Shown here piece after piece: positions 20,317 through 24,765 of a DNA stretch of 64,000 bases. The notes beneath the pieces are model-generated. The model searched no databases, had not been told where the DNA came from, and saw only the letters and a list, made by a program, of their open reading frames with translations. Within the stretch, counting starts at the first letter, position 1. Each line of letters opens with the position of its first letter. The stretch comes from an uncultured Desulfurellales bacterium. Lineage in GTDB: Bacteria; Campylobacterota_A; Desulfurellia; Desulfurellales; CAZERD01. The stretch covers positions 1,568 through 65,567 of the forward strand of contig CAZERD010000002.1 of the NCBI GenBank assembly GCA_964515405.1, written 5' to 3'. Made by a program: the position numbers and the translations under genes.

Positions 20317-20982
20317 TCACCCCATTGAACTCCATAAAAGCTCTCCATCTTTACCCAGATCTCCAACAACCCTCTCAGGGTGCGGCATTAGCCCAAACAC
20401 GTTCCCGCTCTTATTACATACCCCAGCTATATTCCCCACGGAACCGTTAGGATTGGATCCTTCCGTTACGTTTCCTCTCGCATCGGAATACCTCATAACA
20501 ACCAGTCCCTCCGATTCTATCATCTGTAAGGTATCCGGATCGCAGTAATAACTTCCCTCCTTATGAGCTATAGGAAGACTCAAAACAGAACCAGAAATAT
20601 GCCTCGTAAAGAAACAGGACGAATCCTCCACCTTCACATACACAAACCTATGTATAAACCTAAGGGTTCTGTTCATCAGCAGTACACCTGGGAGAAATCC
20701 TGCTTCTGTCAATATCTGAAATCCATTGCATATACCTATAACATACCCCCCCTTGGCCACAAATTCCTTCAGAGCTCCCATAATGGACGAAAATTTGGCC
20801 AAAGCACCACATCTCAGATAATCACCATAAGAAAAACCACCCGGTAATACTATGACGTCAAACCCTTTAAGATCCGTGCACGTATAAGGAACAATCTCAG
20901 CAGGGATTGAAAGCACATCACAGGCGAAAAGGCAATCCCTATCACAGTTCGTTCCCAAAAAACTAACTATCCCTACCCTCAA
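20317..20982 (-). CDS. purQ: Phosphoribosylformylglycinamidine synthase, glutaminase subunit PurQ
   Basis: GATase-1 triad context: GICNGFQIL (Cys nucleophile) and MPHPER near the C-terminus. Confidence 0.9.
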   Translation of the reverse strand: MRVGIVSFLGTNCDRDCLFACDVLSIPAEIVPYTCTDLKGFDVIVLPGGFSYGDYLRCGALAKFSSIMGALKEFVAKGGYVIGICNGFQILTEAGFLPGVLLMNRTLRFIHRFVYVKVEDSSCFFTRHISGSVLSLPIAHKEGSYYCDPDTLQMIESEGLVVMRYSDARGNVTEGSNPNGSVGNIAGVCNKSGNVFGLMPHPERVVGDLGKDGELLWSSMG

Positions 20983-21209: not shown

Positions 21210-23279
21210 TCAAATCCCCGTTAGTAGTATAAGTATGGCTATAATGTTGACAATCTTAATCATAGGATTAATAGCAGGACCTGCGGTATCCTTCAGCGGA
21301 TCTCCCACAGTATCTCCTGTGACGGCTGCCTTATGAGCCTCACTACCCTTACCACCAAAATTTCCATCCTCTATATACTTTTTGGCGTTATCCCAAGCTC
21401 CACCACCACTCGTCATTGAAACCGCCACAAAGAACCCTGTTATGATAGCACCCATTGAAAGGGCACCAAGGGTTATAGGACCAAACAATGCGTAAACCAC
21501 TATAGGAGCTATAACAGGTATCAAACCCGGAACTACCATCCTCTTGAGCGACTCTTTTGTTACTATGTCAACACAGGCAGCATAATCCGGCTTCGCCTTA
21601 CCCTCCAGAATCCCCTTAATGGTTTTAAACTGCCTTCTGACTTCCTCAACCATCTTCCCCCCTGCTATACCCACAGCCTCCATGCTCAAAGCACCAAAAT
21701 AGTAAGGCAGCAAACCACCTATAAGGAGGCCAAGCATCACCGCTGGATTGCTGAGGTTAAATATATCAGGTCCAAGATTCACAGTCCTCACAAACTCAGC
21801 AAACAAAACAAGAGCAGCAAGAACGGCGGAACCTATCGCAAATCCCTTTGTCACAGCCTTTGTTGTATTACCTACAGCGTCCAGAGGATCTGTTACAGCC
21901 CTCACAGATTCATCAAGCTCCGCCATCTCGGCTATACCGCCAGCATTATCTGTGATTGGGCCATAAGAATCAATTGAAATAATAATCCCGCTCAGGGAAA
22001 GCATGGAAGCAGCAGCTATACCTATACCGTACAACCCTGCCACATGATAGGAAAAATAAACTCCCAGAGCTATTACTATTGCAGGCAGGGCCGGAGCCTT
22101 AAGCATAACAGCCATACCCTGAATGATATTGGTTGCATGTCCTGTTTGACTGGCCTTGGCCACAGATTTAACAGGCGGAAAGTGATAGGAAGTGTAATAC
22201 TCAGTGATAAGCATTATCAAAAATGTAATAACCATACCTATAACGGTTGCTATAAATATGTGCACATAGCCTATGCTCATCCCAGCCTTATCTGCCATCC
22301 CCACACCTACCAGAGCCTTGGCAAGAAAAAACAAAGCTACCAGAGCCAGAATTCCTGTGGAAATGAGACCCTTATAAAAAGCCCCCATAATATTCCTCGA
22401 AGAGCCAAGCCTAACAAAAAATGTACCTGCTATGGATGCAATAGAAGCCACAGCGCCTATCAACAACGGGAACATGGTAGCTATCCCCACTACACCCGGC
22501 TTATCAAATAGGGAATGACCAAGAACCATGGAAGCTACTATGGTCACAACAAAAGATTCGAACACGTCTGCTGCCATTCCAGCGCAATCACCAACATTAT
22601 CACCGACATTATCTGCTATAACGGCAGGATTCCTGGGATCATCCTCGGGAATACCAGCCTCAACTTTACCCACCAAATCAGCTCCCACATCAGCCGCTTT
22701 TGTATATATTCCGCCACCTAGCCTTGCGAAAACACTGATAAGGCTTGTACCAAAAGCCAAACCAATCAATGCTTCAATCGTATGTTCCACTGGCTGACCA
22801 AACACATACACAGAAAGATAGTAAAAACCAGCAATGGCAAGCAAACCAAAACCTGTCACAAGTATCCCGGTAACCGAACCACCCCTGAACGCTATATCCA
22901 GAGCCCTTGCAAGCCCCCTCTTTGCCATCTGGGCGGTTCTTACATTTGTTCTTACTGCAACAACCATACCTATATAACCCGCAAGACCAGAAAGAAATGC
23001 GCCTATCAGATAGCCTATGGCCGTGAGCAAACCAAAGTGCTCTGAAACACTCCCCAAGGCCCACAGGATAGCAAACACGACAACAGCAACAATAGAGATG
23101 GTGCGATACTCCCTGGACAAAAACGCATATGCTCCCTCCTGAATGGCACGGGCTATCTCTCTCATGCGACTGGTACCTTCGTCCTTGGCTATCACACTAA
23201 GCGCTGTGAGAAATGCATACACAATGGACAAAAAAGACGCTCCAAAGGTAACGTAGAATATCAATCGGCTTGTCCCCAT
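21210..23279 (-). CDS. hppA: Membrane-bound proton-translocating pyrophosphatase, K+-independent type
   Basis: About 16 TM segments. Contains [29 protein letters not shown] and [16 protein letters not shown]. The Lys in GNTTK(A) is the established marker of K+-independent enzymes. Confidence 0.93.
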
Positions 23280-23287
23280 AATTCCTC

Positions 23288-24589
23288 CTATGAATTGGTC
23301 ATATTGATAAGCCTACCGATAAGTTCGGTGATATCTATTCCCCTTTTACTAGATATGTACTTTATAAGGCTTTCTTCCTCAGGAAGGGTATGCTCTGGAT
23401 CCATGTAGTTAGTTGATAAAAGAATGGCAGAAAGCAGTAGGTAAGCTGATTCTTCTGACATGTCTGAGTCAAGCTTCTTATACTCATCAGCAATAATAGC
23501 CGCAGTTGAATGCCAGGGCTCTATCCTATACCTCGTATGAAGCGTGCCCTTAACTATATCAAGTGAAATAGTGTTATCTATCACCTCCAGTATCTCACAA
23601 TGAAGTATGCCTGTGGGAGCGGTGGAAAGAGAAACATTTTTTATAAGTATCACCCTCCTTTTGGTGTACCTTATGAGGTCTGTGCGGGTGATTATACCTA
23701 GTATCCTCCCCATCCTGTCTATAACTATAGTGGCCCTATTGGTCGAAGTGAACACCTTGTCCTTTATATCATCTATAAATTCTGTAGGATAAACATAAGC
23801 AGCATTCTTGTCACATATAGTATCAACAGGTACACTCCACTCTACAAGACCAGCCGTTGCAAATGCATCATAATCAGAAAGTATAACAGAAACACCATTT
23901 GCCTTCGCCTTCTCCACAAGATCTCCCCTAAGCGTAAAGCCATTAGAGAGTATTATACACCTCACCCCGAAATCTATAGCTTTCTCCTGAAGATCCTCCC
24001 TGTTACCAAGAATTATTATTACATTCTCCGGGTCAAAATTCTGTATGATGTTCATAAACTCCGCAACATCCACAGTACCTATCATAACAGTGGCCACAAA
24101 TGATTCATCTGGATCCACCTCGTTCAATGCTACACCCTCTACAGCTTGCTTTATTAGCGAAATACTAGTCTTTATCCTCCTAAATATATCCGGAATGATA
24201 GAGGATATACTCTTCTTTGCTATATCCAATATGCCAAGCGTTCCATAAAACTTACCATTATCATCCTCTATAGGAACAACCCTCAGATCATTCTTTATCA
24301 TCTGTTTAAATACCTCTGTTATGGGTTGATTCCTGTTAGCCTTATGTATATTAGGAGAAATTATATCCTCGACCCGCAGTTGAAAATTATTAACATACTG
24401 AGGGATATTTATTGAGAAAGCACTCAGCATCTTCTGGGTTATAAGATCCAGTCTCCCATTGACAACAGGAACGTATCTTCTCTCAGGATCCCATCTGCTC
24501 TTTAACTCAGCGTAGGCTATTATAGACGCTATACCATCAAAATCTGGATGACTCTTCGTAGTTATGTAAATGTCTTTTACCCTTTTCAT
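23288..24589 (-). CDS. CBS/DRTGG-domain DHH-family protein, degenerate and truncated relative of CBS-pyrophosphatase
   Basis: The architecture is DHH(N)-CBS-DRTGG-CBS-DHH(C), collinear with family II CBS-PPases. Motif I is kept ([10 protein letters not shown]). The other catalytic motifs are changed: VILVDHN becomes VILIKNV, IDHH becomes IDNT, and SD becomes ST. The protein ends before a DHHA2 domain. Confidence 0.7.
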
Positions 24590-24765
24590 TCAACAGCACC
24601 TCAACAGCATCTTCTTTGGATTTTATATAATAAACCTCTCCCCTTTTCAAGTACACCTACAGAAATAACCCTGTTGTAAGATGAAAAAGATTATCATACT
24701 TCACAAAAAAAGTCTAAAACTTGATAATTTCAATACCGATGTATATAGTATCCGGAGTGCTTAGG

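Follow-up and report, generated by a model that had tools for sequence, protein, structure and literature searches.

A DHHA2-less relative of the CBS-pyrophosphatases with a depleted active site is encoded directly upstream of the membrane pyrophosphatase gene in Desulfurellales

The stretch of DNA analyzed here (the window) comprises 64,000 nucleotides (nt) of contig CAZERD010000002.1 from an uncultured Desulfurellales bacterium (assembly GCA_964515405.1). Its subject is a gene for a CBS-DRTGG-DHH protein that lies immediately before hppA, the gene for the membrane pyrophosphatase (PPase). The gene is a complete open reading frame (ORF; 23288..24589, minus strand) that encodes 433 amino acids (aa) and ends with a TAG stop. 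The hppA gene occupies 21210..23279 on the minus strand, and the measured gap between the two is 8 nt (23280-23287), in line with the spacing and shared orientation given in a preliminary description made from the letters alone. Read on the minus strand, the junction (23280..23290) consists of the stop and the next bases, TAGGAGGAATTATG, arranged as TAG-GAGGAATT-ATG. An AGGAGG Shine-Dalgarno sequence overlaps the TAG stop of the upstream ORF and is followed by AATT and the hppA ATG. The terminator scan detected no terminator-like site between the two genes on the minus strand. On its other side, the 433-aa gene is separated from a divergently oriented rimO-like gene by an intergenic region (24590..24720), in which the promoter scan returned one weak sigma-70-like match on the minus strand (24718..24690). 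Neither the promoter scan nor the terminator scan gave anything above the shuffled expectation. The promoter of the operon presumably lies within 24590..24720.

The hppA product is an intact membrane pyrophosphatase, matched by Pfam H_PPase (865.9 bits), by NCBIfam and by TIGR01104. In an alignment with VrPPase of Vigna radiata its catalytic Asp motifs are intact, and it carries the signature Lys12.46/Thr12.49 (GNTTKAxTKG, against GNTTAAIGKG in VrPPase). The same signature is present in the 19 orthologous loci in which hppA is complete enough to read. This motif defines the K+-independent H+-PPases (PMC10897367), and judging from it the neighboring hppA is of the K+-independent, H+-pumping type.

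The 433-aa protein is collinear with the CBS-domain pyrophosphatases (CBS-PPases) up to the hinge between DHH and DHHA2, with the domain order DHH N-terminal half, CBS1, DRTGG, CBS2 and DHH C-terminal half. Two CBS domains (58.9 bits) and a DRTGG domain (PF07085; 58.4 bits) were predicted by Pfam; the DHH match was sub-threshold (21.2 bits, cut-off 28.1) and no DHHA2 match (PF02833) was obtained in the protein. All NCBIfam equivalog models of the CBS-PPases (PRK14869) match it with E-values from 1e-66 to 1e-39. The models are covered only at positions ~4-420 of ~546, and the score is below every equivalog cut-off, the best being NF011443 with 222.3 bits against a cut-off of 335. Sequence matches in the PDB are the regulatory fragment of the Clostridium perfringens CBS-PPase (3l31/3l2b) and the N-terminal core of Bacillus subtilis PpaC. 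The C-terminus of the 433-aa protein coincides with the end of this 188-aa core, at the hinge before DHHA2. The Pfam, NCBIfam and structure matches agree with the preliminary description, which had called the protein collinear with family II CBS-PPases and devoid of DHHA2. A split gene, with DHHA2 encoded in an adjacent frame or elsewhere, was also considered and ruled out. The hppA gene begins 8 nt past the stop, and the adjacent frames hold no overlooked DHHA2 domain. The sole DHHA2 of the genome sits in a complete 550-aa paralog, and 11 of the 28 Desulfurellales genomes compared (three families, eight genera) have none.

The DHH domain is split by the regulatory insert. Its N-terminal half (aa 1-68; 24386..24589, minus strand), with motif I TKSHPDFD, was delimited by alignment to B. 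subtilis PpaC and by MAFFT, and its C-terminal half (aa 311-433; 23291..23659, minus strand) by alignment to 1wpn and 2iw4 and by MAFFT, with the codons checked. The residue register was obtained from HMMER pairwise alignments of both halves to B. subtilis PpaC (1wpn/1k23), and the same register emerged from a MAFFT alignment of 22 sequences including nine full-length CBS-PPases. The canonical metal/catalytic residues of PpaC are taken here, as we understand them from the structures of Ahn 2001, Merckel 2001 and Fabrichniy 2004/2007, to be His9, Asp13, Asp15, Asp75, His97, His98 and Asp149. The window protein keeps two of these seven, Asp13 and Asp15 (Asp16 and Asp18 in its own numbering). His9 is replaced by Lys12 (codon 24554-24556), Asp75 by Lys317 in motif II VILIKNV (codon 23639-23641), His97 by Asn339 and His98 by Thr340 in motif III IDNT (23570-23575, AACACT = N T), and Asp149 by Ser392 in motif IV LLST. 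In addition, His76 corresponds to Asn318 (23636-23641, AAAAAT = K N) and Asp96 is kept as Asp338. Lys12 and Lys317 thus stand in for the metal ligands His9 and Asp75 beside the kept Asp16 and Asp18, and may fill the former metal sites via salt bridges.

According to the preliminary description, VILVDHN had become VILIKNV with loss of the Asp, IDHH had become IDNT with loss of both His, and ISDS had become LLST with loss of the Asp. All three readings are reproduced by both HMMER and MAFFT. Its further statement that motif I is kept holds for the DxD (Asp16 and Asp18) but not for the catalytic His9, which is Lys12 here, the His of HPDFD being aligned with Asn11. The protein is more degenerate than first described because His9 is also lost. 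An alignment artefact, in which the His and Asp residues would be present but merely shifted, was ruled out by MAFFT, by HMMER against B. subtilis PpaC and by the NCBIfam profiles; in none of these three alignments does a shifted register restore them.

The regulatory insert consists, on the minus strand, of CBS1 (aa 69-128; 24206..24385), a CBS1-DRTGG linker (aa 129-145; 24155..24205), the DRTGG domain (aa 146-249; 23843..24154) and CBS2 (aa 250-310; 23660..23842). Both CBS domains were placed by Pfam, alignment to 3l31/3l2b and column counts, the DRTGG domain by Pfam PF07085 and Foldseek matches to 2ioj and 3l2b, and the linker by sliding-window conservation and the predicted local distance difference test (pLDDT). 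An AlphaFold2 model, built from an alignment of the clade described below, has a mean pLDDT of 88.2 and a predicted template modelling (TM) score of 0.73. In Foldseek, the modelled insert is placed on 3l2b/3l31 with target TM scores of 0.81-0.84, and the modelled split DHH domain on the 1wpn core with a target TM score of 0.83. As modelled, the window protein is a folded protein and not debris.

The ribose-phosphate motif of CBS domains is G-h-h-S/T-x-x-D/N, and the CBS residues that matter in the CBS-PPase of Desulfitobacterium hafniense (dhPPase) are this motif, Lys100, Arg276, Arg278 and Arg295 (PMC11172384). In CBS1 of the window protein, the motif GTLGILD (G116-T-L-G-I-L-D122) is invariant in the clade and has Gly at the S/T position, like Gly118 of dhPPase. 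In CBS2, S282, R285, Arg302 and the motif GIITRTD (G298-I-I-T-R-T-D304) are likewise invariant in the clade. The position of dhPPase Lys100 is occupied by Arg103. These invariant motifs and the TM scores to 3l2b/3l31 support the earlier impression that the nucleotide-sensing CBS/DRTGG module is intact, and the motifs make it likely that the window protein still senses adenine nucleotides. The linker stands out in a different way. No 15-residue stretch of the clade is more conserved than the linker segment aa 127-141 (24167-24211), which has the consensus SISSVMPDIFRKIKT and a sliding-window mean of 0.95. The window protein matches this consensus at 12 of 15 positions, and the motif is absent from canonical CBS-PPases. 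Residues 128-134, the sole very low-confidence segment of the model (pLDDT <50), coincide with the conserved linker. Because it is conserved without a confident fold, the CBS1-DRTGG linker is a candidate interaction, docking or switch element.

A search of 5.8 billion proteins retrieved 31 homologs, from Hippea, Desulfurella and uncultured Desulfurellales. Their identity to the window protein is 45-52%, their length 432-457 aa, and none of them has DHHA2. Past these short homologs the score falls from ~410 to 200 bits, where full-length CBS-PPases begin. When the clade profile was run against 1.84 billion representatives, a single one scored 789 bits, followed at 340 bits by a canonical enzyme of 544 aa. 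The maximum-likelihood tree groups the short proteins in a single clade with 100% support in the Shimodaira-Hasegawa-like approximate likelihood ratio test (SH-aLRT), on a stem of 1.1 substitutions per site and apart from the canonical paralogs of the same genomes. Short matches outside Desulfurellales (P0139, P0170, P0184 and P0195) were rejected as further DHHA2-less families. Since their motifs are intact and their ends ragged or frameshifted, they are truncated canonical genes. The DHHA2-less clade is monophyletic and found only in Desulfurellales. In the literature searched, no natural DHHA2-less CBS-PPase is described.

Loss of DHHA2 is clade-wide, and two further active-site positions are altered throughout or nearly so. 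Motif I reads GR(K/Q)NPDxD in 31 of 31 other members, the His9 position always being Arg, and the Asp149 position is Asn in 29 of 31. Asp13, Asp15, Asp75-His76 and Asp96-His97-His98 are invariant in the other 31 members. The window protein is the sole member in which Asp75-His76 and His97-His98 are replaced and is the most degenerate one: where the clade has invariant Arg12, Asp317-His318, His339-His340 and Asn392, it reads Lys, Lys-Asn, Asn-Thr and Ser. It is therefore a divergent clade member by descent, not by its DHH residues. Typical clade members clear the Pfam DHH threshold, and the Hippea maritima and Desulfurella orthologs score 335.7 and 339.5 bits with NF011443 (cut-off 335), covering model positions 3-421 of 546. 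Public databases list two orthologs as 'putative manganese-dependent inorganic diphosphatase'; a third is labelled 'DRTGG domain-containing protein' and a fourth 'CBS domain-containing protein'. The diphosphatase label on the two DHHA2-less orthologs is probably an over-annotation.

Divergence of the window protein was expressed for each domain as the ratio of window-versus-clade identity to within-clade identity. The ratios are 0.69 for DHH-N, 0.79 for CBS1, 0.88 for the linker, 0.93 for DRTGG (the best preserved), 0.81 for CBS2 and 0.62 for DHH-C. In a control with the canonical paralog encoded in this genome, the DHH halves had ratios of 0.92 and 0.97. The divergence of this lineage is domain-specific and concentrated in the DHH halves. 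The canonical paralog is 47-57% identical to its orthologs, compared with 46-52% for the short protein, and between Desulfurella and Hippea the short form is 52% and the canonical enzyme 51% identical. These comparable identities indicate that constraint on the clade is as strong as on a working enzyme and that the window copy is not decaying as a whole. In the maximum-likelihood tree it has a terminal branch of 0.85, whereas that of the canonical paralog encoded in this genome is 0.45, and 36 near-invariant positions of the clade are changed. No close relative of this lineage was present in the collections searched.

The short gene and hppA are both present in all 28 genomes, and a comparison of coordinates places hppA directly downstream on the same strand in every one. 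At the 21 public loci whose junction was read, hppA starts 8-25 nt past the stop, and GGAGG lies at or just past the stop in all 21. The preliminary description had pointed to synteny with hppA among orthologs sharing the substitutions; the synteny extends to 28 of 28 genomes, but the substitutions in motifs II and III are limited to this lineage. The upstream neighbor varies, rimO being found at only one of the 21 other loci. Downstream, purC (SAICAR synthetase, 237-254 aa) is inserted between hppA and purS in one family and is absent from the window and from Desulfurella genomes; the junction of the short gene with hppA stays constant while purC comes and goes. An ancestral full-length CBS-PPase beside hppA was sought at the two closest canonical homologs examined and was not seen there, as both have unrelated neighbors and neither lies beside hppA. 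In the window, just 1 nt separates the purS start (21208) from the hppA stop (21210-21212), and purS and purQ share 20 nt (20963-20982). There are hardly any gaps in the minus-strand array as a whole, and tight spacing is for this reason not specific to the short gene and hppA.

The genome of the window (1.54 Mb, 85 contigs, 89.8% complete) also encodes, on a separate contig, an intact canonical CBS-PPase of 550 aa with GHKNPDAD, MDHNE, DHH, SDT and DHHA2 (contig C27 at ~14.3-16.0 kb, locus L001 1465..3117, minus strand; NF011443, 493.4 bits). This gene adjoins a cofactor-independent phosphoglycerate-mutase-like gene, and its product is the sole recognizable soluble PPase of the genome. Family I PPase (PF00719) is absent from all 28 Desulfurellales genomes. 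A DHHA2 domain is found in 17 of the 28, including 10 of the 15 high-quality ones. The remaining 11 have no DHHA2 protein yet keep the short gene, and five of these are of high quality and at least 94% complete. In these five high-quality genomes, the pump and the short protein are the only PPase-related genes. In the genomes without DHHA2, the membrane H+-PPase appears to be the sole enzyme hydrolyzing inorganic pyrophosphate (PPi).

Since DHHA2 and five of seven metal/catalytic residues are gone, no PPi hydrolysis is expected, and the window protein is very probably not a pyrophosphatase, as the residue losses and a published deletion variant suggest. An engineered DHHA2 deletion of dhPPase is inactive and forms homotetramers via CBS-CBS and DHH-DHH contacts (PMC10742508). 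It binds the fluorescent AMP analogue Mant-AMP and diadenosine tetraphosphate (Ap4A) as well as or better than the full-length enzyme and is more thermostable (PMC10742508; Zamakhov et al., 2023). The idea of a pseudo-enzyme with a retained sensing module, put forward in the preliminary description, is consistent with this variant, inactive yet nucleotide-binding, with the loss of DHHA2 and five of seven residues, and with the invariance of the CBS motifs.

We tentatively propose, at somewhat less than even confidence, that the 433-aa protein is a non-catalytic adenine-nucleotide sensor tied to the membrane PPase. The DHH fold would be kept as a scaffold and the CBS-DRTGG-CBS unit would serve as a sensor for AMP, ADP, ATP or Ap4A. 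As the first cistron of an operon and translationally coupled to hppA, the gene would have its product co-made with a K+-independent H+-pumping PPase, and its role would be to couple the pump's use of PPi to the adenylate or alarmone status of the cell. In the most likely mechanism, a homo-oligomer, probably a dimer or tetramer as in the deleted dhPPase, would bind the cytoplasmic face of HppA. That the protein acts on or with HppA is possible, though short of probable, on the basis of synteny and paralogy. A link to the pump is the most economical explanation because a pseudo-enzyme derived from a PPase is always co-encoded with the pump and persists without a soluble PPase. It is more doubtful whether the clade is the first case of a soluble subunit dedicated to regulating a prokaryotic membrane PPase, docking on HppA and setting its activity or direction (PPi hydrolysis versus synthesis) according to AMP, ATP or Ap4A. 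If it is, the window protein would demonstrate that this role can do without the remnant DHH metal site.

Several observations weigh against a sensor that serves the pump. We know of no soluble regulator of a prokaryotic membrane PPase; to our knowledge these enzymes are regarded as self-contained homodimeric pumps, without protein regulators in prokaryotes, and the literature searched describes no protein regulator or partner of a bacterial membrane PPase. The downstream order purS-purQ-hemL is conserved across the order too, and since conservation and tight packing extend to the entire array, within a single order, adjacency is weak evidence of a functional link. The position of dhPPase Lys100, which contacts the alpha-phosphate, varies across the clade (R/L/M/I/V). 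In addition, the invariant DHH residues of the other 31 members suggest that the DHH site retains some function in the clade, in which case the window protein may have lost part of the clade function.

This last point leads to a reading in which the clade is an enzyme or a metal- or PPi-binding protein that uses the DHH site alone, for example as another phosphoesterase or as a sensor of PPi or phosphate (Pi), and the window copy is a lineage-specific loss-of-function variant. The invariance of Asp13, Asp15, Asp75-His76 and Asp96-His97-His98 in 31 of 31 others is in its favor, as are the conservation of the segments bearing them, among the highest in the clade (0.83-0.89), and the scores of typical members, which pass Pfam DHH and, with 335.7 bits, lie barely above the NCBIfam cut-off of 335. 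However, DHH-family hydrolases bind their substrates via C-terminal DHHA1 or DHHA2 domains, and the deleted dhPPase is inactive (PMC10742508). The Arg at the His9 position throughout the clade and the Asn at the Asp149 position in 29 of 31 fit poorly with catalysis, and the window protein is intact, well folded and conserved elsewhere despite the loss of the site. Because it persists in conserved form without it, the DHH site is not the sole selected function, and we regard this reading as quite unlikely. It is unlikely, too, that the short protein acts on the soluble CBS-PPase as a regulatory or 'poison' subunit, one that would co-assemble with the 550-aa paralog via conserved CBS-CBS and DHH-DHH interfaces and damp an energy-wasting PPase when the operon of the energy-conserving pump is expressed. 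An intact canonical CBS-PPase is indeed encoded in the same genome, and both paralogs occur in 17 of 28 genomes. CBS-PPase tetramers are held together by the domains retained here, and the DHHA2-less variant tetramerizes (PMC10742508). Yet the paralogs are only ~26-28% identical and separated by the stem of 1.1 substitutions per site, such that the interfaces may no longer match. Control of that paralog is also not universal, because the 11 genomes without a DHHA2 protein, five of them at least 94% complete, keep the short gene with the same conservation.

The overlap of the stop codon with the hppA Shine-Dalgarno sequence would also allow for a functionless relic, an ORF kept open only because its translation brings ribosomes to the overlapping hppA ribosome-binding site. 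The long terminal branch (0.85 against 0.45 for the canonical paralog) and the 36 altered near-invariant positions would fit such a relic, which is nevertheless improbable: the divergence is domain-specific, with ratios of 0.79-0.93 for DRTGG, linker and CBS domains, the protein still carries the nucleotide motifs and the linker motif specific to the clade, it resembles its orthologs about as closely in identity as the real enzyme does, and the AlphaFold2 model is confident. Highly improbable is a sensor that serves the purine genes of the array (purC/purS/purQ) and not the pump. CBS modules do regulate purine metabolism in IMP dehydrogenase (IMPDH) and GMP reductase (cited in PMC10742508), and the conserved array continues after hppA with purS-purQ, preceded in one family by purC. 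The invariant immediate neighbor, however, is hppA, purC is variable between hppA and purS, and the protein is paralogous to a PPase and not to a purine enzyme.

What is new here is a pseudo-enzyme offshoot of the CBS-PPases with a fixed genomic partner, of which the window holds the most degenerate member. As a natural, order-wide and selected counterpart of the laboratory deletion of 2023, linked to a pump gene, the proposed sensor is a testable candidate that could reveal how a cell decides whether the energy of PPi is wasted or conserved. The physiology of the order is concerned as well, since no family I PPase is encoded in any of the Desulfurellales genomes compared, and several encode nothing PPase-related beyond the pump and the short protein. 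The naming of DHHA2-less orthologs as diphosphatases, on scores barely at the cut-off, flags a risk of over-annotation.

The CBS-PPases are the best-studied model of CBS-mediated allostery, and the family II enzymes dhPPase and C. perfringens cpPPase (3l2b/3l31) resemble the window protein in domain order up to the hinge, in the regulatory fold and in the CBS motifs. Unlike them, the window protein has no DHHA2, keeps two of seven residues, and belongs to a separate clade on a long stem that is always found before hppA. The Hippea, Desulfurella and uncultured orthologs share its length of ~432 aa, its truncation, its position before hppA, and its linker and CBS motifs. They keep Arg12, the Asp-His of motif II, the DHH of motif III and the Asn of motif IV, whereas the window protein has Lys, Lys-Asn, Asn-Thr and Ser, respectively.

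AcuB, an operon-encoded CBS protein, binds Ap4A and inhibits its partner enzyme AcuC (PMC13039410). The proposed role is similar in that a non-catalytic CBS protein is encoded in the operon of the enzyme it controls and a nucleotide tunes the protein-protein interaction. The second domain of AcuB, however, is ACT and not DHH or DRTGG, and its partner is a soluble deacetylase, so that the comparison is one of analogy, with no kinship beyond the CBS pair. The best experimental proxy is the DHHA2-deleted dhPPase, which has the same architecture and the same truncation boundary as the window protein. The deleted dhPPase was made in the laboratory, retains the DHH half of the active site intact and has no partner; the window protein, in contrast, is a natural and selected form from one order, with further loss in the active site and a fixed genomic partner.

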